DNA from: Candidatus Saccharimonadota bacterium
Lineage (GTDB): Bacteria; Patescibacteriota; Saccharimonadia; Saccharimonadales; UBA4665
Length of the DNA stretch: 32,000 nucleotides
Direction of reading: 5' to 3'
NCBI GenBank assembly: GCA_016700375.1
Contig: CP065016.1
Location: 870,001 to 902,000 of the forward strand
In this document: piece by piece, positions 687-31,352 of the stretch
How positions within the stretch are numbered: the stretch's first letter is position 1
How the letters are laid out: each line of letters starts with the position of its first letter
Notes under the pieces: model-generated
Database searches by the model: none
Seen by the model: only the letters and a program-made list of their open reading frames with translations
Told to the model about the DNA's origin: nothing
Program-made: the position numbers and the translations under genes

Positions 687-1575
687 GGCTCTGTCAACGA
701 ACATGGAACAAGCAAACCTGTAGGTAGGTGAATGGTGAGTCAAAAAGATGCGGCTGGTTATGCCGAGCCATCCATTCATTAAGAACCGTTTGAAGATTCT
801 TGGTAGGTACGCAGCCATAGAGTTTTCGTAAGTACCGCTTTATCTCGCTCCAGATGCGTTCAATCTGGTTTGTTCCAGCAAACTGTCCAGTGCTATGGTT
901 CCAGCTCTCGTGGGTATAGCCAAGCAGCGGCAAATCCTGGTAGGCATACCACTTGTCAGTGGCGACATTTGTTCCTGACTTTACGGTATCCAGTACGAAT
1001 TGTTCTAGGACATCCTGTCCTCTGGAATTCGTTATCCTGAGTGCAATACGGTCAGTATCCGGTTCAATTGCTCCAGTCACAATTGTCTGCGGCTGTGTGC
1101 TCTTCAGCTTCCCGAAGTAGCTCTCGTCTATCTGCACGAGGCCGCATAGAATAGTGTCTGATTCATCCGGCAGATGACACCTGAACCGTCCGTACCACCG
1201 CTCAACTGTTGGGTAGCTGACATGCGCTACCAAACATGCGGTGTCGGGGCTCTTTTGTACTGCCAGCACCAGAGCAGGACGAAGAGCTGTCTGGGGCTCA
1301 GCTTCATGCCGTACAACCAAGAACCTTGATGAGCTGTTGGCCGATACTTCCGACGGCACTGCGAGCATCATGCATAGCGACGCACATACTGAAGCTTTAG
1401 TGTTTGTGTGCATCGTGAACAACGGAGTGTGTCACCAAATGCTAGTTTGTTAAGGAACACCCAGCACTTCTTATTACTAGGAATGTCTGTTAATTTAGTC
1501 ATGGAACAACCTTTCTATTCTTGTTAGCTTTGACACTACAAGTTTAGCGGTTGTTCCGTTTTAGTTTAATGAGCC
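687..1575 (-). mobile_element. IS1595-family insertion sequence, decayed
   Basis: Imperfect terminal IRs GGCTCTGTCAACGAACATGGAACAAGC (687-713) vs revcomp of 1549-1575 (20/27 identical). They enclose a zinc-ribbon/HTH/DDE transposase gene. AAAGTCA lies on both flanks (680-686, 1578-1584). Confidence 0.7.
694..1502 (-). pseudogene. IS1595/ISXO2-like transposase, disrupted by an in-frame TGA and one frameshift
   Basis: ATG 1502: MTKLTDIPSNKKCWVFLNKLAFGDTLRCSRCTQTLKLQYVRRYA, then TGA (1370..1368), then CSQCRRKYRPTA...LLWCWQYK. A -1 shift near 1243-1256 joins to KSPDTACLVAHVSYPTVERWYGRFR...VQIDESYFGK...(ORF track 694..1422). Confidence 0.8.
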
Positions 1576-3458: not shown

Positions 3459-5216
3459 ATGCGAACACTTGCAGCTGAATCTATCAAACAAGTTGGCCAA
3501 ACTATTACTACTATGGGTTGGGTGCAGTCGCGCCGTGACCACGGCGGGCTAATTTTTATAGACCTGCGTGACCACACCGGGTTGCTGCAGCTGGTCATTA
3601 ACCCCGAGACGGCTGAGGCTTTCAAAACGGCCGAAGAACTGCGCGATGAATTCGTCATCGCCGCCACTGGCACCGTAAACGAACGAGACGAAAACCTGCG
3701 TAATCCACACCTGGAAACTGGTGGTGTTGAAATGAAAGTCACTGACATTCGTATTCTTAACCGCGCCGACACCCTGCCCATACAGCCATTTGCCGAGGCT
3801 CAAGCCAACGAAGACCTTCGTTTGCGTTACCGCTATCTAGACCTGCGCCGACCAAAAATGCAGCATATGCTCAAAAAACGCGCGGAGTACTACAAATACA
3901 TGCGGGACTTTGTAGAATCACAAGGATTCATCGAGGTAGCCACTCCAATCTTAGCAAACAGCAGCCCAGAGGGTGCGCGCGACTTCCTGATTCCCTCGCG
4001 TATACACCCGGGCAAATTCTACGCCCTACCCCAGGCGCCGCAGCAGTTTAAGCAGCTCCTTATGGTCGGCGGCCTACCTCGCTACTACCAGCTGGCCGCC
4101 TGTTTCCGCGACGAAGATCCCCGGGCAGACAGACTGTACGGAGAATTCTACCAGCTCGACGCCGAGATGAGTTTTATAGAAGACGGCGAAGAAGTGCGTA
4201 CCACCTTTGACCCGCTCATAAAAAGCCTCGTGAGTGACTTTGCTGGTAAGAAATTGCTGAACGAAGATGTGCCGCGAATTCCGTATGCCGAAGCCATGGA
4301 AACGTATGGCTCAGACAAGCCAGACCTGCGGTTCGACATGAAGTTGGTGGACCTCAGCGACGTGTTTGCTGGTTCTGAATTTGGTGTCTTTAAAAATGCT
4401 GTTGCTAGTGGAGGTGCGGTCAAAGCCATTTGCGTGAAAGGCGGTGCGAGCTTAAGTCGCAGCCAAATAGACAGCTTTACAGAAATTGCGAAAAACGAGG
4501 GTGCTGGTGGGCTGGCATACTTAACCTACAAAGACGGTGAGGTGCAGTCACCAATTGCCAAATTTATGAATGAGGCGGAACTCACCGAAGTAAAAACACG
4601 ATCCCAGGCGGAAGGCGGCGATGCCGTGTTCTTTGGCGCAGACACACGCCAGATGGTAAACAAAGTGCTTGGACGGCTGCGGGGTGAGTTTGCTAGTCAC
4701 TTCGGCCTGAAAGACCCAGACACGGTTGCCCTGTGTTGGATTGTTGACTTTCCATTCTACGAGACAGACGAAAAAACCGGCAAAATGGACTTTGGCCATA
4801 ATCCATTCAGCATGCCAAAGGGCGGGGCACACGCGCTAGATAACACTGAAAACAAGCTTGAAATATTGGCCGACCAGTACGACATGGTCGCGAATGGCTA
4901 CGAAATTTGCAGTGGCGGCGTGCGCAACCACAACCCAGAGGTGCTCTACAAAGTATTTGGATTGCTCGGGTTCGACGAAGCTTACGTAGAGGAAAAATTT
5001 GGCGCCATGCTAAATGCCTTCAAGTACGGTGCGCCGCCGCATGCCGGTTGCGCCTTTGGCCTTGACCGATTGTTTATGGTGCTTATGGGCGAGGAAAACA
5101 TCCGCGAAATAGTCGCCTTCCCCAAAAATGGCTCCGGACTCGACGTCATGATGAACTCCCCGAGCGCAGTAGAAGCCGCGCAGCTGAAAGAACTTAGCAT
5201 ATCCGTCACTGAGTAG
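3459..5216 (+). CDS. aspS: Aspartate--tRNA ligase (bacterial type)
   Basis: 585 aa. OB-fold N-terminus (GWVQSRRDHGGLIFIDLRD) and class II motifs (FRDEDPRADR, GGVRNH, GLDRL). GAGGA SD 9 nt upstream. Confidence 0.97.
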   Translation: MRTLAAESIKQVGQTITTMGWVQSRRDHGGLIFIDLRDHTGLLQLVINPETAEAFKTAEELRDEFVIAATGTVNERDENLRNPHLETGGVEMKVTDIRILNRADTLPIQPFAEAQANEDLRLRYRYLDLRRPKMQHMLKKRAEYYKYMRDFVESQGFIEVATPILANSSPEGARDFLIPSRIHPGKFYALPQAPQQFKQLLMVGGLPRYYQLAACFRDEDPRADRLYGEFYQLDAEMSFIEDGEEVRTTFDPLIKSLVSDFAGKKLLNEDVPRIPYAEAMETYGSDKPDLRFDMKLVDLSDVFAGSEFGVFKNAVASGGAVKAICVKGGASLSRSQIDSFTEIAKNEGAGGLAYLTYKDGEVQSPIAKFMNEAELTEVKTRSQAEGGDAVFFGADTRQMVNKVLGRLRGEFASHFGLKDPDTVALCWIVDFPFYETDEKTGKMDFGHNPFSMPKGGAHALDNTENKLEILADQYDMVANGYEICSGGVRNHNPEVLYKVFGLLGFDEAYVEEKFGAMLNAFKYGAPPHAGCAFGLDRLFMVLMGEENIREIVAFPKNGSGLDVMMNSPSAVEAAQLKELSISVTE

Positions 5217-5247: not shown

Positions 5248-6168
5248 GTGCAACATTTAGTAGCGGCCGGCCAGCTTACGCCGGAAGTTTTGACGGAACT
5301 TATGAACAAAGCGGAGGAGTTCCGCAAGCTACTGGAAACGACAGACGGCAGAAACCAGCTGCGGGCACTGTACCCAGATAAGGTCGTTGCAACACTGTTT
5401 TATGAACCTTCCACACGAACGCGCTTAAGCCATGAGTCCGCTGCCCAGCGCCTCGGTATGGGGGTGGTTAGCACCGAAAATGCTGCAGAATTCTCATCTG
5501 CCATAAAGGGTGAAACCATAGAAGACACAGTGCGGGTGGTGTGCGGCTATGCCGACGCCATTGTTATTAGGCACAAAGAAACAGGTATTGTTGACCGTGC
5601 CGCTGCAGCGAGTCCGGTGCCAATCATAAACGCCGGTGACGGAACGGGTGAGCACCCCACCCAAGCACTGCTAGATGTCTATACCATTTGGCGCGAAATG
5701 GGCACGCTCGAGGGGCTGAATATTGTTATGGGCGGCGACCTCGCGCACGGACGCACAGTTCGCTCGCTTGCGCAGGCTATGAGCCAATACAAAGGTACTA
5801 GCTTTACGTTCGTTTCGACCCCACAGCTCTGCATGGGTGATGACATAAAGGCGCTGCTAAAAGAACGCGGCGTGTCTTTTACCGAAACGGCAGACGTGCA
5901 CGCGGCAACCAAGCAGGCCGATGTGGTCTACTGGACTCGGTTGCAGAAAGAGCGGCTTGAAGACCCGACGCTTGAGGCGGGGTTTGTGGTGGATGAAACG
6001 GTGCTGGCAGGCATGAAAGAAAAGTCGGTCATTATGCATCCATTGCCGCGGGTAGACGAAATTTCTGCCGCAGTAGATGCTGACCCGCGTGCCGCGTACT
6101 TCCGGCAGTCGCACAATGGTGTGTATGTGCGTATGGCGCTTTTGGATTATTTGTTTAGTCAGAAATAA
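5248..6168 (+). CDS. pyrB: Aspartate carbamoyltransferase catalytic subunit
   Basis: 306 aa with STRTRLSHE, HPTQALLD, HPLPRV motifs. GTG start with AAGGAGG SD at 5236-5242. Confidence 0.95.
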   Translation: MQHLVAAGQLTPEVLTELMNKAEEFRKLLETTDGRNQLRALYPDKVVATLFYEPSTRTRLSHESAAQRLGMGVVSTENAAEFSSAIKGETIEDTVRVVCGYADAIVIRHKETGIVDRAAAASPVPIINAGDGTGEHPTQALLDVYTIWREMGTLEGLNIVMGGDLAHGRTVRSLAQAMSQYKGTSFTFVSTPQLCMGDDIKALLKERGVSFTETADVHAATKQADVVYWTRLQKERLEDPTLEAGFVVDETVLAGMKEKSVIMHPLPRVDEISAAVDADPRAAYFRQSHNGVYVRMALLDYLFSQK

Positions 6169-8471: not shown

Positions 8472-10454
8472 ATGGCAAAAATTCCCGTTCAAACACCAGA
8501 CCCAGAAGAACTAAAAGCGGAAAGGCACGTCACTGAAATTATGGGTCCACCACAAGGGTTTGATGGTAATAAGCCGACACCTGAACAGGATGTTGAGGCG
8601 GAGCAAAAACCTGCTCAAGAGCCAACAGCGCAACCCGAGGCTATATCGCAGCAAGCAGACACGGAACAAACAGCTACCGAAGAATCAATCGATAGTATCA
8701 ATGCGAGGTTAAAGGCACAAGCAAACAATGCTCCATATGAAAAAGATTTAGACATGGAGCAGTTGCCGTCAGACTTCAAGGCAAACGCCGAGCCTGAGGA
8801 TGCGGCCACGGTTGCTGCTGTAGACGATATTTTAAAAAATGACGCCGATGCTGCACTGTCCTCGGACACTCCAAGACCAAAAGCAATTGTTATGAAGCCG
8901 TCCATCTTTGAGCGCCTAAAGAACGCTTGGTATAAGTGGTGGGATAACAAATGGAGTCGGTATGGTACCGTCGCTTTCGGTGTTGTACTAGCAGTATTGG
9001 TGATATTTGTGAGGCCGGTTCGAAACCTTGTGCTAAACACTGCCGGTGTACGGTCTAGCGTACTCGTAAGTGTGCTCGATGGTGCAAATAACTTGCCGCT
9101 TCAAAACGCAGTCGTTTCGGTAGATGGCGTATCTGGCAAAACTGACGAAAAAGGGCAGGTACGGCTTGAGGGCATCCACCTTGGTGCGCAGGAAGTAGAT
9201 ATACGGAAGCTCGCTTTTGCTGGTGTCAAGAAGCAGGTTGATTTTGGTATGCGCATTGTTGACATGGGCGAAATTACTCTTAAGCCAACTGGGCAAAAAC
9301 TCAGCTTCGAATTGGTAGATTATCTTTCCGGCAAGCCCCTTGCCGACATATCTGTTACTAGCGGTGAAGCAACTGCTAAGTCAAGCAAAGATGGCAAAGC
9401 CATACTCACGGTTGCTCCCGGAGGCGCGGACAACATAAAGATTTCTGGCGAAACTGTTCGCACCGAAGAAGTAGAACTCAGCGAGGCGCAGAGCGGCACT
9501 GTAAAGCGTAAACTTGTTCCTTCCGCAAGAGCGATTTTTATTAGCAAAGAAAGCGGTAAGTACGACGTGTATAAGGTGTATGTAGACGGTAAAGACCGCG
9601 AAGTACTGCTTGCCGGCACCGGCTTGGAAACACAGGCCATGACAGTGCTGCCAAAGCAATCGGGCGACAAGGTGGCGGTTGTGTCCTCGCGCGACGATAA
9701 ACGCAATAAAGATGGATATCTTCTTGCGGGATTGTTTGTAGTGGACGTTGAAACCGGTGAACGGGTTAACATTGAATATGCCGAGCAAATCACTTTGCTT
9801 GGTTGGCGCGGCGACACCTTGCTGTACCGTCAAACGGTGGCTGGTACAAGTGCCGCAAACGCAAATCGTCAAAAAATAATCGCCTACGATTTTGGTGCCA
9901 ACAAGCGGTTCCAGCTTGCTAATGCTAACTATTTTGCCGGGGAATACCTTATAGGCAATACCGTTTACTACACGGTGTCTGCCACGGACTCTGGCGCAAA
10001 AGAAACGTTTGCACATGTCAACATCGACGGCACCGGCAAGAAAACGCTCTATACAGGCGATGCCTGGTCATTATTGCGCGGTGACTACACAAAACTTAAG
10101 TTCCAAACGCCAACCAAGTGGTATGAATATACTCTTGGCGCCTCAGCCCCAGTGGAATCAACGCCCCCGGCCGAATACAGCTCACCCTATTTTGTCGATA
10201 GCCCCGACCTCAAGACAAGCGTTTGGGTAGACGTACGTGACAATAAAGGTGTCTTGCTGCTGCGAAACCTTAGCGACGGCAAAGACAAAGAACTTGTTTC
10301 GCAGCGTAGCATGCAGGCAGTGGCATATTGGTTAGGAGAAAAAGCAGTTGTGTACCGCGTAGTAGGCGCAGGCGAAACAGCAGATTACATAGTCAGCGTA
10401 GACGGTGGCACTCCCCGAAAGATTGCCGATGTCAGTCTGACGGCCATACGATAG
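8472..10454 (+). CDS. Membrane-anchored surface protein: acidic disordered N-terminus, one TM, Ig-like (CarboxypepD_reg-like) repeats and a probable beta-propeller region
   Basis: 660 aa. TM is YGTVAFGVVLAVLVIFV. VLVSVLDGANNLPLQNAVVSVDGVSGKTDEKGQVRLEG is typical of carboxypeptidase-regulatory-like folds. Domain calls are by pattern only. Confidence 0.7.
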   Translation: MAKIPVQTPDPEELKAERHVTEIMGPPQGFDGNKPTPEQDVEAEQKPAQEPTAQPEAISQQADTEQTATEESIDSINARLKAQANNAPYEKDLDMEQLPSDFKANAEPEDAATVAAVDDILKNDADAALSSDTPRPKAIVMKPSIFERLKNAWYKWWDNKWSRYGTVAFGVVLAVLVIFVRPVRNLVLNTAGVRSSVLVSVLDGANNLPLQNAVVSVDGVSGKTDEKGQVRLEGIHLGAQEVDIRKLAFAGVKKQVDFGMRIVDMGEITLKPTGQKLSFELVDYLSGKPLADISVTSGEATAKSSKDGKAILTVAPGGADNIKISGETVRTEEVELSEAQSGTVKRKLVPSARAIFISKESGKYDVYKVYVDGKDREVLLAGTGLETQAMTVLPKQSGDKVAVVSSRDDKRNKDGYLLAGLFVVDVETGERVNIEYAEQITLLGWRGDTLLYRQTVAGTSAANANRQKIIAYDFGANKRFQLANANYFAGEYLIGNTVYYTVSATDSGAKETFAHVNIDGTGKKTLYTGDAWSLLRGDYTKLKFQTPTKWYEYTLGASAPVESTPPAEYSSPYFVDSPDLKTSVWVDVRDNKGVLLLRNLSDGKDKELVSQRSMQAVAYWLGEKAVVYRVVGAGETADYIVSVDGGTPRKIADVSLTAIR

Positions 10455-10462
10455 GCTTCGAG

Positions 10463-10471
10463 TGATATCAT
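10463..10471 (+). promoter_or_regulatory. Extended -10 TGaTATCAT, 6 nt upstream of GTG 10478
   Basis: Reads GTGATATCAT-AATCAG-GTG. Confidence 0.45.
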
Positions 10472-10477
10472 AATCAG

Positions 10478-11293
10478 GTGAACGCGCAGACGAAAACAAT
10501 TGCGGAGTTTGTTGAGGCTGTTTGGGAGTATTACCGTTCTCATGGTCGTCATGATTTGCCGTGGCGTTTTCCAGAGGCGAATGGTACTTTCGAACCCTAT
10601 AAAATTCTTGTCAGCGAGTGTATGCTTCAGCAAACACAAGTTGCCCGGGTAATCCCCAAGTATCAGACATTTTTGCGGAGCTTTCCGAATGTGTCGGCAC
10701 TGGCTGAAAGCGAATTGGGTGAGGTACTGCGCGCGTGGCAAGGACTAGGCTATAACCGTCGCGCCAAGTACCTATGGCAAGCTGCGCAGTGTATTGAGCA
10801 GACTGGCTCGTTCCCGGGTAGCCAAGAAGCACTGACAAAACTCCCGGGGGTTGGCGTAAATACAGCAGGAGCCATTTTGGCCTATGCCTGGAACCAGCCG
10901 GCTGTATTTATAGAAACAAATATCCGCACAGTCTACATACATCATTTCACCAGGGATGCCGATGTTGTATCTGATGATTTCATCCGGGATTGTTTGGAGC
11001 GAACACTCGACCGGGAACACCCGCGTGAGTTTTATTGGGCACTCATGGATTACGGTTCTTACCTAAAAACACGCGTTCAAAACCTGCATCGGAGCAAGCA
11101 ATACACAAAACAGTCAAAGTTTGAAGGCTCTAAAAGACAGATTCGCGGGCAGGTGCTACGTGAACTGAGTAATAAATCCTCGACTGCCATGCACTTGGGG
11201 CGCCTTATAGACGATGAACGCCTGTTTGGCATTCTTGAGGAGCTTGTAACTGAGGGGCTCATCAAAAAGAAGGGCGAGCAGTATAGCCTGTAA
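10478..11293 (+). CDS. mutY: MutY-like adenine DNA glycosylase (HhH-GPD core) lacking Fe-S ligands, with a C-terminal wHTH-like tail
   Basis: DLPWR, SECMLQQTQV, GLGYNRRA, LPGVGVNTAGAIL, LMDYGS. No CX6CX2CX5C cluster. 271 aa. Confidence 0.8.
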   Translation: MNAQTKTIAEFVEAVWEYYRSHGRHDLPWRFPEANGTFEPYKILVSECMLQQTQVARVIPKYQTFLRSFPNVSALAESELGEVLRAWQGLGYNRRAKYLWQAAQCIEQTGSFPGSQEALTKLPGVGVNTAGAILAYAWNQPAVFIETNIRTVYIHHFTRDADVVSDDFIRDCLERTLDREHPREFYWALMDYGSYLKTRVQNLHRSKQYTKQSKFEGSKRQIRGQVLRELSNKSSTAMHLGRLIDDERLFGILEELVTEGLIKKKGEQYSL

Positions 11294-11313
11294 AATGATA
11301 GAATAGAAGGTAT

Positions 11314-11688
11314 ATGAATCCACAAACCGCTCCAACAGCAAGCCCTGAAACAACCGCGCCTACAACCCAGGCTTCTGGCCCGGTTATGGATGTCGTGCCA
11401 CCACCTGCGCCCACCGTGCAAACACCGCCACCCTCAACGGGGCAGGCTGCCACAGAGGCGCCCGTACAACAGGCGCCAGCAGCCGAAAATACACCAGTCG
11501 CAGAAGCGCCCGCCGCGAGTGAAGCGGCTCCGGCACCCGACATGACCCCCGCCGCAAAACCTGCCCCCCAGGCAGCCCCGGCCAAGCCGAAACCTCCCCG
11601 AACGCTTCCTATTGGTGTTATTGTTGCAGCGGTTATCATATTTCTTGCCCTATCGGTGCTTGCATACTACGTGTACAGTAAGGGCTAA
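11314..11688 (+). CDS. Pro/Ala/Thr-rich low-complexity protein with a single C-terminal TM helix
   Basis: 124 aa ending LPIGVIVAAVIIFLALSVLAYYVYSKG. TGaTAGAAT lies 9 nt upstream. Confidence 0.6.
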   Translation: MNPQTAPTASPETTAPTTQASGPVMDVVPPPAPTVQTPPPSTGQAATEAPVQQAPAAENTPVAEAPAASEAAPAPDMTPAAKPAPQAAPAKPKPPRTLPIGVIVAAVIIFLALSVLAYYVYSKG

Positions 11689-27726: not shown

Positions 27727-27802
27727 GGGGGCGTAGCTCAGTGGTTAGAGCAGTCGGCTCATAACTGATTGGTCGTAGGTTCAAGTCCTACCGCCCCCAC
27801 CA
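27727..27802 (+). tRNA. tRNA with CAT anticodon: elongator Met or lysidine-dependent Ile2 (CCA encoded)
   Basis: GGGGGCG/CGCCCCC acceptor, D arm GCTC-AGTGGTTA-GAGC, anticodon loop CTCATAA, T arm GTAGG-TTCAAGT-CCTAC. By recollection the AGAGCAG.CGGCTCATAA...TGGTCG body resembles ileX-type tRNAs; this is not decisive. Confidence 0.9.
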
Positions 27803-27844: not shown

Positions 27845-28315
27845 GTGAAGCTAAAGACAAACATCATCAACAAATGGTACCGCTACGAAGAGCCGGTAAG
27901 GGCCTACATACTCAGTTTGCGCGATGTACGCAATGTTGGTTCGTTGGCATTTGTGGTGCTTGTGCTTCTTATAAGTTGGAGCGGAACCAAGGCCATACAA
28001 ACGAACTACAGCCTTCAGCAGCAGGTAGCTCGTATGCAGCAGCAAAACGAGGTGAAAAAGCTGCAAAATGAGACCCAGAAACTAGAGAACAACTACTACA
28101 CTACCAGCCAATACCGCGAGGTGGCAGCACGGCAAAACTTTGGCCTCGCGTCTCCGGGTGAAACGGTGCTGCTTGTACCAAAAGAGACAGCACTTGCCAA
28201 CACGGTGGCGGTGCCAGAAAGCGAAGATAAAGAACAGCCTGCTAAAAACAAGCCGTTTTACCAAGAAAATTTCGAATCATGGATTGATTTCTTCTTCCAC
28301 CGGACGAACACTTGA
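27845..28315 (+). CDS. Septum formation initiator family protein (FtsB/DivIC-like)
   Basis: TM is GSLAFVVLVLLISW, followed by a coiled coil (LQQQVARMQQQNEVKKLQNETQKLEN) and YREVAARQNFGLASPGE. Confidence 0.8.
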   Translation: MKLKTNIINKWYRYEEPVRAYILSLRDVRNVGSLAFVVLVLLISWSGTKAIQTNYSLQQQVARMQQQNEVKKLQNETQKLENNYYTTSQYREVAARQNFGLASPGETVLLVPKETALANTVAVPESEDKEQPAKNKPFYQENFESWIDFFFHRTNT

Positions 28316-28414: not shown

Positions 28415-29420
28415 ATGACCGCCCCGCATCTCCAAACTATGACTGCACAAGAATATATAGAGTCATCACTTGAACAATTGGCTATGCCGGTTGAAGTCGT
28501 TGACAATATAAATGCATCGAATATTAACGAGATTCTTTTTCGGCTATTAACAACGAAAAAATTTCGCAAATATTCTCTGAATGATGACTATGTAGCGCAC
28601 ATTAAAAAATCAATCGCTGCCAGTGTCGAGGCAAACGAGCCGATAAAAGTGATATTTTTTCGGCGGTTGCTATAAGCTATGGCGGCTCGAAGAATCGCCC
28701 GAAGCTGACTGGACAGAGGTTTTTGCCTATATGTACTATACGCAGTGGCTCAAACCGATATGTGCAGTATATAAACCGGGGCTATGGTTTGACTTCCTTC
28801 TTGATGACTACATAGTGCCGAGACTTAACAATATTTCCGAGGAAGACGTAGAATCATACCGGGCGAGCCGCGACGCGGTTTTATCATTTGTACGACCCTT
28901 TCAGCCAGCAAACCTGACGCTGACACATACGGGAGTGGGCAGTCTATTTACATCAAGAGAACACTACGAAACTTCTCTTGATAGATCAGTATCAGAGCTT
29001 GCAAAAACACTTCCGAATGGTCTGCCGCAGCTGAGTGAAGCCGAAAGGGCGTCCGTAGAACTCAATACGCGCGTGACCCCAGAACAGCAAAGGGATCCAC
29101 TTTGGCGCGAAAAGGTCGAGCTCTTGCATAGGGCTTACTATCTCGCGCGGAATGAAACAGGTTACTATGCCCCAGAAACAAATAAAATCATTGCATTTAC
29201 ACAGCCGTTTGCACCTGGCAGGCCACTGGCTGTCGGGTCTACAAAGGATACGGTTGCTAAATACTGGGCAGGTGCCGGCGCGCTGAAGAGGACAGTTAAT
29301 GCCTATCGTCCGCTGGTGTTATCACCAAAGCAACTTAGCGGGACAGAGTCTACGTGGGATAATACGACATTTCCTCAACTTTCGGGCAAAAACTTCAGCC
29401 GCGTTCGAGTGATTGCATAG
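28415..29420 (+). pseudogene. Hypothetical enzyme-like protein split by a +1 frameshift in a T6 run
   Basis: ORF 28415..28675 (...ANEPIKVIFF) continues in the +1 frame as GGCYKLWRLEESPEADWTEVFAYMYYTQWLKPICAVYKPG... (ORF 28731..29420). The second frame opens at 28653. T6 run at 28655-28660. Confidence 0.75.
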
Positions 29421-29421
29421 T

Positions 29422-29450
29422 TTGACTTTTGTTTACACCTCTGTTAAACT
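29422..29450 (+). promoter_or_regulatory. Sigma70-type promoter of tRNA-fMet (TTGACT-17 nt-TGtTAAACT)
   Basis: -35 at 29422-29427, 17-nt spacer, extended -10 at 29442-29450. The tRNA starts at 29481. Confidence 0.6.
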
Positions 29451-29480
29451 TGTATCTAACGTTTAGAACCGTTCAGTCGC

Positions 29481-29555
29481 CGCGGGATGGAGCAGCGGCA
29501 GCTCGCATGGCTCATAACCATGAGGTCCCAGGTTCGAGTCCTGGTCCCGCAACCA
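29481..29555 (+). tRNA. Initiator tRNA-fMet (CAT), CCA encoded
   Basis: C1.A72 mismatch (CGCGGGA/TCCCGCA), A11:T24 in the D stem, anticodon loop CTCATAA with GG/CC closing pairs, T arm CCAGG-TTCGAGT-CCTGG. Confidence 0.94.
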
Positions 29556-29592
29556 AGAAAAATGTCTCACCGAAGGTGGGGCGTTTTTCTTG
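29554..29592 (+). terminator. 18-bp-stem hairpin starting inside the tRNA CCA end (T1)
   Basis: CAAGAAAAATGTCTCACC-GAA-GGTGGGGCGTTTTTCTTG. Confidence 0.7.
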
Positions 29593-29597
29593 TTGTA

Positions 29598-29739
29598 GGC
29601 CAAGACTTGAAGCTGGGACCAGCAGCGACGCAGTCGATGCGTAGGCCCCGGGTTCGTTCATGACGAATGCGCGCAGAAGCTTGCTTCGAGCACATGAGGA
29701 ATGGCTGCCAATAGCAGCGCCCCTGGTCCCGCAACCAAG
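29598..29739 (+). repeat. tRNA-fMet-derived tandem unit A, ending in the exact 18-nt tRNA 3' end CCTGGTCCCGCAACCAAG
   Basis: 18-mer at 29722-29739 is identical to 29540-29557. The body shares AGCAGCG and AGGnCCCnGGTTCG with the tRNA but has no anticodon arm. Internal hairpins at 29628-42, 29653-67, 29676-87 and 29704-18. Confidence 0.85.
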
Positions 29740-29778
29740 TTAAAACCCCAGTGTCAACTGGGGTTTTAACTTGGTTTT
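29735..29778 (+). terminator. Perfect 18-bp-stem hairpin + TTTT (T2)
   Basis: CCAAGTTAAAACCCCAGT-GTCA-ACTGGGGTTTTAACTTGG-TTTT. Confidence 0.75.
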
Positions 29779-29919
29779 GGCCAAGATGCGAACCTGGGAC
29801 TAGCACGCGAATGCGTGCGTGGTCACTGGTTCGACGCCAACGAAGTCGCGCGCAGAAACTTGTTTCGAGCACGACATAGTGCGAAAGCCAAAGGCTTTGC
29901 CCCTGGTCCCGCAACCAAG
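29779..29919 (+). repeat. tRNA-fMet-derived tandem unit B, ending in the exact 18-nt tRNA 3' end
   Basis: 18-mer at 29902-29919. Collinear with unit A: GGCCAAGA, CTGGGAC, GGTTCG, CGCGCGCAGAA, TTCGAGCAC, with hairpins at the same positions but different sequence. Confidence 0.85.
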
Positions 29920-29954
29920 TAAAAAGCCGGTCTTTCGACCGACTCTTTACTTGG
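29915..29954 (+). terminator. Imperfect long hairpin (T3) at the same position relative to the 18-mer
   Basis: CCAAGTAAAAAGCCGGTC-TTTC-GACCGACTCTTTACTTGG. Confidence 0.55.
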
Positions 29955-30080
29955 TTCTGAGGTTCAGATTCGAGCCAAAAAGGTTCGGCGGAGTGAGGAC
30001 GCGAGCAGTCCGTCAGCTGACGGACGAGCACGCCGCAGCGGAGAAGGACGAAGTCCGCTGTCCTGGTCCCGCCCCCAAAA
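29955..30080 (+). repeat. Degenerate third unit C, ending in a partial copy CCTGGTCCCGCcccca
   Basis: CCTGGTCCCGC at 30062-30072. Retains GGTTCGgCG...CGCGaGCAG-[hairpin GTCCGTCAGCTGACGGAC]-CGAGCAC-[hairpin CAGCGGA/TCCGCTG]. Confidence 0.65.
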
Positions 30081-30158
30081 CTTACGACCGCCGCTCCCCA
30101 TGCGATAAATCACCTCATATTTACTTCGGGGATATGTCGTAAACCATAGGTAGTTCGA

Positions 30159-31352
30159 CTACTCTGAACCAACATGCTTTCTGCGAATTGTAAACACAAA
30201 CAAGCTCATGAACATGCTTAGCACAAGCAAGATATATGTCGCGGAAAATACCGAACTTTGTTCACTCACATAACCAAAAAGTAGCGCTAAAGGAATAATA
30301 AGGGCGCGGCCAAATGTACTAGTGGCTGAAACAGCGCTTGCGCGTATGTGGGAGGGTAGTAGGTCGTGCAGAACACTGGTGAGTGCAATCGCCAGAGCCA
30401 CTAATGTGCCTATCACTACAAATTGCAGGAGTACCACAATAAATAGTTGCTTTACAAATACAAGACCGCATAAGCTCACCACTAAACACACAACAAACAA
30501 CACCATTCGTTTGCGAGAGGCAATGTGTAGATGTTGCGCAAACCAGCCGCCAAATCCAATGGCCGCGTACAGCAAAGCCCCCGCGAACCCAAAGAATCCG
30601 GTCGGAGCGTTGAGTGTTATGAGCCACAACTGAGCAAACTCAAACATCATGAAAAGAACAGTTGTTTTTATAACGAGGGATATGACGACTGGTAGGGCAT
30701 ACCCTCTGCGCGTGACAACACGAAATGTTTCTCGAACCTGCGCGCCCAGTAGTTGCCTGCGATGTTTATGCAGCTGTGGTTCGCGGAATAGCAACAGGGC
30801 GGTGACAGCGAGGAGTGCGAACGGGATGGAGAGAAAGTACGTTTCGCGCAGGCCTAACCGTGTTGCAACGAACGTACTAACGAGCCCACCCAGAACAAGA
30901 CCTGCACTATCGGCTATTTGAATACGACCGTAGATTTTCCGGTAGAGAGCAGGTGATTGTTTTTCCTCTGCCAATGTATCGTATACGATTGATTCATACA
31001 TGCCGGCATAGCAGGCGTAAAAAACGCCCCATAAAATAGCACAAAGCAAGTACAGGCCTATGCCATTACTGACGCCACCAACAAAGGCGGCACCGGCAAG
31101 TGCGAAGCTAGCTAATATGAGGACACCTTTCCGACTCCACCGGTCGGCCAACAGACCCGACGGCATGTCTATAAGCAGCATTACTGCCGAATACACCGCT
31201 ACCATAAACCCAATATCTGCATCACTGAACCCAATGCTACGCATAAAAAGCTTCTCTGCAGCGTACCACAGCACAAAACTCTGAAAAAACGCAGCAACGT
31301 AGAGCGGCCGCAGTCGGGTATTGAGAGAGACATTAGGTTGTTGCTGTTTCAT
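30159..31352 (-). CDS. MFS transporter
   Basis: 397 aa, about 12 TM helices, with an MFS-type loop motif (GLLADRWSRKG). Confidence 0.88.
   Translation of the reverse strand: MKQQQPNVSLNTRLRPLYVAAFFQSFVLWYAAEKLFMRSIGFSDADIGFMVAVYSAVMLLIDMPSGLLADRWSRKGVLILASFALAGAAFVGGVSNGIGLYLLCAILWGVFYACYAGMYESIVYDTLAEEKQSPALYRKIYGRIQIADSAGLVLGGLVSTFVATRLGLRETYFLSIPFALLAVTALLLFREPQLHKHRRQLLGAQVRETFRVVTRRGYALPVVISLVIKTTVLFMMFEFAQLWLITLNAPTGFFGFAGALLYAAIGFGGWFAQHLHIASRKRMVLFVVCLVVSLCGLVFVKQLFIVVLLQFVVIGTLVALAIALTSVLHDLLPSHIRASAVSATSTFGRALIIPLALLFGYVSEQSSVFSATYILLVLSMFMSLFVFTIRRKHVGSE

Follow-up and report, generated by a model that had tools for sequence, protein, structure and literature searches.

The closest described counterpart of the array reported here is RtT (Rfam RF00391; rttR) of the E. 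coli tyrT-tyrV locus. There, as here, tandem units of ~180 nt lie directly behind a tRNA gene and in its orientation, the last 16-19 nt of the tRNA, CCA included, close every unit, and the unit body holds a T-arm remnant (..AAGGTTCGA..) followed by some 66-80 nt of GC-rich insert in which GAGCG words and a GCGAAGC hairpin occur. A spurious-looking ORF runs across the repeats in both cases, namely ychS in E. coli and a 154-aa ORF here. The E. coli tyrT locus contains six exact copies of a 19-mer, the 3' end of tRNA-Tyr, 178 nt apart, and the tyrT/tyrV locus carries two annotations, the small RNA RttR and Rfam RtT. Bosl and Kersten are said to have demonstrated the RtT RNA product by experiment in 1991.

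Two DNA-level systems share other parts of the layout. As at the attL/attR sites of genomic islands, direct repeats of a tRNA 3' end bound inserted DNA, the tRNA remains intact upstream and stacking is possible. As in integrons with their attC sites, there is a promoter-proximal primary site, the cassettes are short and carry no recombinase of their own, and the boundary elements keep structure while varying in sequence.

The window, the whole 32,000-nt stretch of DNA analysed, carries such an array behind a tRNA-fMet gene. It differs from RtT in its tRNA (tRNA-fMet instead of tRNA-Tyr) and its phylum (Saccharibacteria), in that each unit follows a strong hairpin terminator and begins with an inverted T-arm copy, in the diverged subfamilies found within one array, whereas E. 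coli units are near-identical, and in the gene islets linked to the Saccharibacteria units. When the covariance model built here (R1) was run on the E. coli locus, four of its units were among the five best matches, all of them weak (E 0.3-0.9). RF00391, which scores the E. coli units at 133-138 bits, has no match at E<=10 in the window or in nine related loci, and Rfam at permissive thresholds offers no family for the units. The analogy with RtT thus rests on layout, and homology is not shown, because the Rfam RtT model does not match. The E. coli tyrT analogue had been missed by the initial annotation of this stretch, which was made from the letters alone. A literature search found nothing on such an element in Saccharibacteria; this family of tRNA-fMet trailer modules is previously undescribed, and its kind is already known from RtT.

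The elements of the locus are as follows, with helix registers of unit A taken from comparison of homologues.

29422..29450, plus strand: tRNA-fMet promoter, sigma-70-like, TTGACT-17-TAAACT (promoter scan)
29481..29555, plus strand: tRNA-fMet, anticodon CAT, C1xA72 mismatch, CCA gene-encoded (ARAGORN; Rfam tRNA 61.3 bits)
29540..29557, plus strand: 18-mer copy 0, comprising T-stem 3' strand, acceptor 3' strand, ACCA and AG (exact match)
29554..29592, plus strand: T1 terminator hairpin, its stem beginning in CCAAG and a U-run following (dG -24.7 kcal/mol, z -6.9)
29597..29737, plus strand: unit A body (R1, 123 bits), with antisense T-arm copy 29607-29620, H1 29622-29640, sense T-arm copy 29644-29656, internal-loop hairpin K 29667-29695, H4 29704-29718 and 18-mer 29722-29739
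29733..29776, plus strand: T2 terminator hairpin, 20 perfect base pairs (dG -32.6 kcal/mol, z -8.2)
29778..29917, plus strand: unit B body (R1, 124.2 bits), with P1 29789-29800 paired with 29822-29833, H1 29803-29818, K 29845-29875, H4 29881-29900 and 18-mer 29902-29919
29913..29956, plus strand: T3 terminator hairpin (dG -22.2 kcal/mol, z -7.2)
29960..30077, plus strand: unit C, the decayed distal copy (R1, 57.6 bits), with P1 core 29969-29988, H1 lost, K 29997-30034 and H4 30036-30060
30062-30079, plus strand: unit C tail, CCTGGTCCCGCCCCCAAA, with no terminator after it

The sequence CCTGGTCCCGCAACCAAG occurs exactly at 29540, 29722 and 29902 in the window, and a version with three mismatches at 30062 represents a decayed fourth copy; the successive spacings behind tRNA-fMet are 182, 180 and 160 bp. 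None of 100 shuffles gave four matches to the 18-mer. Copy 0 lies inside and at the end of tRNA-fMet, and the match of units A and B to the tRNA 3' end is exact over 16-18 nt. ARAGORN and Rfam RF00005 call only 29481-29555 as a tRNA and return no cloverleaf for units A-C. Units A and B align collinearly at 69% identity, and unit C is shortened, scoring 57.6 bits against the 123-124 bits of A and B with R1. Tandem Repeats Finder misses the array in the window because the units are too diverged. These results bear out the initial annotation in its exact 18-mers and decayed copy, in the collinearity of units A and B, in its three terminator hairpins, which fold as described (dG -22.2 to -32.6 kcal/mol), and in the places of its hairpins H3 and H4 and its unit C motifs. 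Its H1 in unit A (ACGCA/TGCGT) was wrong, as homologues support GCAGCGAC/GTCGATGC at 29622-29640, and its H2 is not conserved in the family.

T1-T3 each combine a GC-rich hairpin, a U-run and RNA-type pairing on the transcribed strand, the features of an intrinsic terminator, and an A-tract and a U-tract flank the stem-loops. Like the intrinsic (bidirectional) terminators of tRNA genes, the T1-T3 family tolerates G.U and not A.C pairs. Unlike ordinary tRNA terminators, CAACCAAG of the tRNA or unit end pairs with the start of the inverted tRNA copy; this pairing extends the terminator stem, and the CCA end is therefore part of the hairpin.

Across the family, a module consists of a strong terminator hairpin with a stem that begins within the CCA, the P1/H1 arm, the internal-loop hairpin K, a small GNA-loop hairpin and the tRNA 3' end. 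At its 5' side each unit carries the tRNA T-arm and 3' half as an inverted, antisense copy, a feature that went unnoticed in the initial annotation. P1 forms between this inverted antisense T-arm copy and the internal sense copy, a pairing present in all unit types, and is capped by H1. The internal loop of K is conserved as CRCRCA/GAGYA, and within the K loop G-C to C-G and G-C to A-U swaps are found.

H1 and both K stems clearly co-vary. In the family alignment 90% of cells are paired, against 25-45% in slid controls, and double-change cells number 138 against 42 in shuffles, with none of 500 shuffles reaching as high. Compensatory change is seen at 8/8 pairs of H1 and 8/10 pairs of K, and the co-variation of K is also present on a plain MAFFT alignment. 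Single-sequence folds of the unit bodies are modestly better than those of shuffles, about equally on both strands (z -1 to -3.6). Since G.U pairs are scarce in H1 and K, pairing in these helices cannot separate RNA from single-stranded DNA. DNA hairpins can keep complementarity by templated (quasi-palindrome) mutation without selection on an RNA, which we count against an RNA reading.

Other elements distinguish the strands. In the family alignment, G.U outnumber A.C pairs by 41:4 in the terminators and 24:7 in P1, and GCGAAGC loops occur 16 times on the plus strand, their complement not once. This asymmetry favours the plus strand. Units with intact tails are usually followed by a plus-strand terminator, and units with decayed tails are without one. 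A scan of 29300-30300 returned a single promoter-like site, that of the tRNA at 29422-29450, and none for the units, in agreement with the initial annotation. A very stable terminator-like hairpin precedes each unit, which also counts against an RNA reading; with this hairpin in front and no unit promoter, transcription would depend on read-through.

Of the 43 strong matches to the covariance model R1, nearly all lie in the array that directly follows tRNA-fMet or within the downstream cassette region, and the family is represented at about 40 loci of Candidatus Saccharibacteria, where the copy number ranges from 0 to 3. A tandem tRNA 3' end occurs in 15 species-representative genomes and 23 metagenome contigs; the labelled carriers are nearly all Saccharibacteria/Saccharimonadales, with one Bacillota. 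By ORF clustering over 38 loci, the conserved neighbours, FtsB/DivIC and ABC transporter genes, lie only upstream. Close relatives differ by whole modules: the window has A-B-C, locus L019 has B only, and locus L020 has A and a C-like unit. The CCA end is lost in the only or last copy of about a dozen genomes, and the unit is dispensable in some genomes. Locally, units are only marginally slower than their flanks (99.5% versus 96.8%), from which no claim is drawn. The tRNA-fMet is identical in all of the more distant genomes reached through FtsB homologues, so that comparing unit tails with tRNA variation is uninformative; in the lineage of L025 the T-stem of the tRNA does differ. With respect to miniature inverted-repeat elements (MITEs), the unit ends do form imperfect inverted repeats, being the tRNA 3' end in antisense and in sense; a target-site duplication was not observed, and full copies all lie behind tRNA-fMet, in about 300 kb of loci.

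The reading that we prefer, and to which we give about even credence, is that the array consists of RtT-like trailer RNA modules of the tRNA-fMet gene, the number of which changes by recombination at the 18-mer. Each module would derive from the 3' half of the tRNA, as an old partial copy that has been rearranged and lies in tRNA orientation. It would comprise one T-arm copy in inverted form and another in sense, ~70 nt inserted where the T-loop would be, and the final 16-18 nt of the tRNA. Transcripts of the modules would arise where the preceding hairpin is read through or is a site of processing, and the unit RNA would fold into three hairpins, P1/H1, K and H4. Its 3' tail would be identical to that of the tRNA, and the tRNA 3'-end machinery together with the next terminator may set its end. 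Unequal or homology-anchored recombination, acting on the identical 16-18-mer and the tRNA gene, would alter the number of modules. It could keep the 18-mers perfect beside diverged bodies, stack unit variants, admit small gene islets between modules and allow distal copies to decay. If expressed, the modules would constitute a new lineage-wide structured RNA family in ultra-small, host-dependent bacteria with very little non-coding DNA, and a second, independent case of the poorly understood RtT-type 'tRNA trailer' RNAs, the two cases together making their role testable. The first proposal of the initial annotation, a novel tRNA-derived structured RNA family, agrees with this in part: a tRNA-derived structured family does exist (43 covariance-model matches, three co-varying helices), found behind tRNA-fMet in relatives, and the closing helix drawn for it is not general.

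The units may instead act at the level of DNA, as a recombination platform or att-type modules, possibly in single-stranded form, that mark the ends of small cassettes at GCAACCA; the agent would be either a recombinase whose gene lies elsewhere or, once DNA has been taken up, homology-facilitated recombination, and the window's array would be a stack of empty cassette ends. We regard this as possible and rather unlikely. It is consistent with the direct repeats of the tRNA 3' end that bound inserted DNA, both in the units of the window and in the islets of relatives. Islets of 0.6-2.9 kb with ordinary, housekeeping-like genes lie between unit copies in nine loci (L015, L017, L019, L023, L025, L031, L037, L044, L046), and in L025 a 200-nt, 100% identical repeat of hairpin plus unit flanks 1.78 kb. 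Every cassette ends in a conserved ~60-nt motif finishing in GCAACCA, the 7-mer that also ends the tRNA and the units; the point at which decayed tails diverge varies within this 7-mer, as it would for junctions; and the first unit turns over between close relatives. Against this reading, neither Pfam on 30 ORFs nor a motif screen of ORFs >=100 aa revealed an integrase, resolvase or HUH gene in the window, as the initial annotation had stated for an integrase, and a motif screen of ORFs >=150 aa, which a divergent recombinase could escape, found none in 38 related loci (about 300 kb in all). Viral contigs contain no 18-mer match and, for a 16-mer, phage tRNA genes or coding coincidences only, with no unit in the 428 kb of those contigs; the cassette motif has no true occurrence there, at most chance coding matches, and no matching attP was found in these contigs. 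No RNA fold is conserved in the cassette-end motif, which the window lacks; in most genomes there is a single unit without any cassette; and a duplex att site leaves the conserved K loop sequence and the plus-strand-specific GNA loops unexplained. The motif was also considered as a small minus-strand ORF (MVAQVHSNWN...), with third codon positions just 1.5x more variable than the others and no protein homologue found.

Unlike island attL/attR sites, the locus has no integrase found in the window, islets or flanks, no counterpart in viral contigs, islets of just 0.6-2.9 kb with housekeeping-like cargo, and a repeat that is a structured 180-nt module, more than a core. The initial annotation had proposed stacked att scars, which unit-bounded islets of 1-3 kb in relatives support, and which the searches that found no integrase and no units in viral contigs do not; in the tRNA-fMet loci of relatives, the variable unit number was seen, and integrase-bearing islands were not found by motif screen. 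Unlike integrons, no IntI-like gene was found beside the site, no RYYYAAC/GTTRRRY boxes are apparent by eye, the cassette-end motif has no conserved hairpin, and strand-specific features lie on the cassette-ORF strand. It is with little confidence that we suggest that the initiator-tRNA gene might anchor an integron-like cassette-capture platform without its own integrase, in which the modules, working as plus-strand RNA or single-stranded DNA, and the ~60-nt motif, all ending in GCAACCA, would set where cassettes insert, stack and are lost, the window's three units being empty slots. If the modules do act on DNA, they would make the single initiator-tRNA gene a recombination hot spot at which accessory genes are exchanged between Saccharibacteria, which bears on gene acquisition by reduced genomes.

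It is unlikely that the units are non-functional debris, that is, incomplete, decaying duplicates of the tRNA gene plus terminator that persist only through unequal crossing-over regenerating units and through self-correction of hairpins. Truncation or loss of the CCA end affects unit C and many terminal units, one complete genome (L098) has no unit, and unit identity is only weakly linked to host relatedness (rho 0.2). Debris does not explain why units remain alignable and structured, with loop motifs kept, across hosts whose FtsB proteins are 50-60% identical, why neighbours in one array belong to different subfamilies rather than being fresh duplicates, or why compensatory changes so far exceed the shuffled and slid controls. 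Decayed tandem tRNA duplicates, as the initial annotation also considered, describe the distal copy and not the others.

The initial annotation further envisaged a closing helix, UGGGACYAG/CUGGUCCCG, mimicking a stacked acceptor/T-stem minihelix that leaves CAACCA free as a tail. Such an RNA would serve RNase P, the CCA-adding enzyme, MetRS or the formyltransferase as substrate or decoy. This helix forms 8-9 of its 9 pairs in 22 of 33 distinct units, YAG is conserved beyond the tRNA-derived GGGAC, and RNAalifold picks the helix for type-I units. In the remaining third it is absent or largely unpaired; nine units (L013, L017 u1, L018, L024, L036, L040, L043, unit C and the L023 fragment) form <=4 closing pairs because they are without GGGAC, and these still keep the GAACC/GGTTC pairing. 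The invariant 3' tail leaves the helix no room to co-vary. Given that it also competes with P1, that mismatches are expected at 1:72 and 2:71, and that ACCA is lost from many tails, we consider such a minihelix very improbable.

The 154-aa minus-strand ORF at 29567-30031 was rejected as a protein gene: it has no Pfam match, its frame is broken by a 1-nt indel in the orthologous L020 unit, and array composition is unlike between close relatives. Whether the modules act as RNA or as DNA, the family is a ready marker of strain-level variation, for the detection of which a covariance model now exists. Unit B of the window is 98.9% identical to the sole unit of the close relative L019.

The tandem array described in the initial annotation was borne out. 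An 18-mer, CCTGGTCCCGCAACCAAG, matches the window exactly at 29540, 29722 and 29902 and recurs as a decayed copy at 30062; none of 100 shuffles of the sequence reached four matches. The first copy forms the 3' end of a tRNA-Met(CAT) gene (29481-29555), whose C1xA72 mismatch is characteristic of initiator tRNAs in bacteria, and each exact copy leads into a very stable hairpin (z-scores of all three, -6.9 to -8.2 versus shuffles):

29554-29592, hairpin following 18-mer copy 1
29733-29776, hairpin following 18-mer copy 2
29913-29956, hairpin following 18-mer copy 3

The sole promoter-like site found in the region, at 29422-29450, belongs to the tRNA-fMet gene. Among the three ~180-base units behind that gene, A and B are 69% identical, and C, the decayed distal copy, shares about 51-52% with either. 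A 154-aa antisense ORF spanning the whole array (29567-30031, minus strand) parallels ychS, which spans the E. coli rtT repeats; it was rejected, having no Pfam match and a frame broken by an indel in a relative, and is predicted as a gene in metagenome assembly L002. An IS1595-family DDE transposase fragment lies 28 kb away from the array (694-1413, minus strand).

Relatives were retrieved with a pattern of merely two tRNA 3'-end copies, 150-180 nt apart. It matched 15 species-representative genomes, 13 of them labelled Candidatus Saccharibacteria or Saccharimonadales and one Bacillota, together with 23 metagenome contigs; the relatives L019 and L020 are 96-98% and about 90% identical to the window, respectively. 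Across the loci so retrieved, a covariance model trained on 12 units gave 43 strong matches, nearly all in tRNA orientation and located immediately behind tRNA-fMet or in the ensuing region of gene cassettes; units A, B and C scored 123, 124 and 57.6 bits. Four loci retrieved independently via FtsB homologues (L098-L101) all have an identical tRNA-fMet: L101 holds one intact unit, L099 and L100 hold decayed units (two in all), and L098 is a genome without a unit. Loci thus carry between 0 and 3 copies; the element is dispensable, and some lineages do without modules. In L098, the zone 2-4 kb downstream of tRNA-fMet contains rve-like and IS1595 transposase genes (9339-11458) as well as a pseudo-tRNA whose anticodon has 4 nt (8927-9001). 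A literature search found no paper describing the Saccharibacteria unit family.

The hairpin after the tRNA or a preceding unit runs from an A-tract through a GC stem-loop to a U-tract. At its base CAACCAAG pairs with CTTGGTTG. With this second arm begins a copy of the tRNA 3' half that is inverted and decayed; an example is CTTGGTTTTGGCCAAGcCTCGAACCTGGGAC versus the reverse complement of GTCCCAGGTTCGAGtCCTGGTCCCGCAACCAAG. Hairpin H1 comes next, followed by a sense T-arm copy, aGGTCCCAGGTTCGg; this copy and the inverted one form a helix of as many as 12 bp (P1). A conserved stretch, GGAGCGAGG, leads to hairpin K, in which both stems vary and the internal loop (5'-CRCRCA / 5'-GAGYA) is conserved, and then to H4, a small hairpin that is frequently GCGAAGC or has another GNA or an AAA loop; the module ends as the tRNA does. 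From this order of parts, the unit therefore looks like the 3' part of a tRNA with a T-loop insert of ~56-80 nt, an inverted T-arm copy lying ahead of the insert-bearing part. Copies of hairpin K are present beyond full units as well: one is joined to the 5' half of a tRNA-Met-like pseudogene that closely precedes elongator tRNA-Met (L034, 320-400), and another forms an orphan partial unit located 1.2 kb ahead of tRNA-fMet (L014, 3270-3330).

In a model-based alignment 90% of cells are paired and 138 carry double changes versus 42 in shuffles, 0 of 500 shuffles reaching 138; when the 3' partners are slid by 1-3 columns, pairing falls to 25-45%. Compensatory change is seen at 8 of 8 pairs in H1, 5 of 6 in the outer stem and internal loop of K, and 3 of 4 in its inner stem, and two pairs within the conserved K loop also swap (G-C to C-G, G-C to A-U). 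The co-variation of K recurs on a plain MAFFT alignment and that of H1 on a MAFFT seed alignment. Variation in P1 is confined to the inverted strand, mostly toward wobble pairs. Single-sequence folding energies of the unit bodies are unremarkable, both strands alike.

Among the helices drawn in the initial annotation, H4 and H3 (the inner K stem) hold; its H1 of unit A is out of register, the family supporting GCAGCGAC/GTCGATGC at 29622-29640, and its H2 lacks conservation in the family. The closing helix it proposed, UGGGACYAG/CUGGUCCCG, has 8-9 of its 9 pairs in place in 22 of the 33 distinct units but is weak or absent in the remaining third; RNAalifold picks it for type-I units. Because GGGAC is missing, nine units form at most four of these pairs, nevertheless retaining GAACC/GGTTC. 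The closing helix, whose tail strand is invariant, competes with P1. It may be an alternative conformation and is not the defining helix of the family.

G.T outnumbers A.C by 41:4 in the terminator hairpins and by 24:7 in P1, and GCGAAGC, a very stable mini-hairpin, occurs 16 times on the plus strand in units of all loci versus 0 for its complement. Because of this asymmetry and strand bias, the structures belong to a single-stranded plus strand, that of the tRNA transcript; wobble pairs in H1 and K are too few to tell RNA from single-stranded DNA.

At E. coli tyrT-tyrV (L049), the last 19 nt of tRNA-Tyr recur in six exact copies, and the 178-nt units, which carry the small-RNA annotation RttR, match Rfam RtT at 133-138 bits. 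The RtT unit follows the same plan, namely a T-arm remnant (CCAAGGTTCGA), a GC-rich insert and then the tRNA tail. Its insert, about 66 nt, has GAGCG words and a GCGAAGC hairpin; this motif, overrepresented on the plus strand of Saccharibacteria units, is present in every E. coli rtT unit. Run on the E. coli locus, the Saccharibacteria model gave E. coli units as four of its five top matches, with E values of only 0.3-0.9, and the Rfam RtT model matched no Saccharibacteria unit in the window and related loci. Given the shared plan, the weak cross-match and the lack of an RtT model match, the window element is laid out like RtT, appears to work like it and lies outside that Rfam family, so that the likeness is one of layout.

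The best-supported reading, to which we give an even chance, is that the units are RtT-like trailer modules of the tRNA-fMet gene, varying in number through recombination at the 18-mer. The modules would be expressed from the plus strand, their RNA would form three hairpins and finish in a 3' end resembling that of a tRNA, and 18-mer recombination would set module number. Close relatives differ by entire modules: the window is A-B-C, L019 has B only (98.9% identical), with a 138-aa gene and then a C remnant behind it, and L020 has A (99.5% identical), then a fuller version of C. Adjacent units of one array belong to different subfamilies, each common to other genomes, and first-unit identity tracks FtsB identity weakly (rho 0.2). 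Terminal copies are often damaged, their tRNA similarity ending at variable points within GCAACCA with no terminator after; units with an intact tail are usually followed by a plus-strand terminator. This turnover fits modules being gained and lost through recombination that uses the tRNA gene and the identical 16-18-mer, which would explain perfect 18-mers beside diverged bodies. Compared with L020, the region around 27845-28315 is mosaic: identity is only 76% for the FtsB/DivIC gene versus 97-100% for the two genes after it, the tRNA and unit A, a pattern pointing to recombination near tRNA-fMet in the recent past.

That the modules instead act at the DNA level, as boundaries of a cassette platform, is a doubtful alternative. 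It draws on at least nine related loci in which 0.6-2.9 kb of ordinary cargo, including PadR, NUDIX, HAD, P-loop kinase, aminotransferase, hydrolase and CutA genes, sits between unit copies. In L025 a 200-nt repeat (hairpin plus unit), 100% identical at 4168-4367 and 5945-6144, flanks 1.78 kb in which a second unit lies together with genes for a P-loop kinase and a HAD hydrolase; it looks like a Campbell-type insertion or duplication, or may be a MAG assembly artefact. Every gene cassette downstream of units terminates in a conserved motif of ~60-110 nt (TTCCAyC..AACTCC..GGTTCCAATTCGAATGtACnnGGGCAACCA), whose last seven bases, GCAACCA, are also the end of tRNA and unit:

L015, 1545-1597, 3028-3080 and 4062-4113, cassette-end motif
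L025, 5150-5200, 5895-5950 and 6885-6945, cassette-end motif
L046, 4590-4645 and 5775-5832, cassette-end motif
L031, 8510-8565, cassette-end motif
L026, 4095-4150, cassette-end motif
L040, 1830-1880, cassette-end motif

The motif was not found in the window, and a search for a conserved fold in it found none. It is readable as a ~36-aa minus-strand ORF (MVAQVHSNWNdILsELsRWK...) with a weak coding signal, for which no protein homologue was found. The initial annotation had raised the prospect of integrase-bearing islands bounded by the 18-mer; the islands exist, but searches for integrases and other recombinases found none, either in the window, where 30 ORFs were compared with Pfam and motifs were screened, or in related loci, which were covered by motif screening and ORF clustering. 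About 30 phage contigs (L050-L097, IMG/VR) carry tRNA-Met genes with the exact 16-nt 3' end CCTGGTCCCGCAACCA, often within tRNA clusters; their bodies differ, no trailer unit follows any of them, and neither unit nor cassette-end motif was found in the viral contigs. Pure debris, which would suit the damaged terminal copies, is improbable beside the compensatory changes in H1 and K.

The tRNA-fMet of L025 (4100-4174) has the T-arm GTAGG/CCTAC of elongator tRNA-Met (compared with window 27727-27802). The inverted copy of its first unit fits this variant (CTCGAAGCTACGAC), whereas the unit tails retain CCTGG, a pattern suggesting that the two tRNA-Met genes have exchanged sequence and that modules are chimeric.
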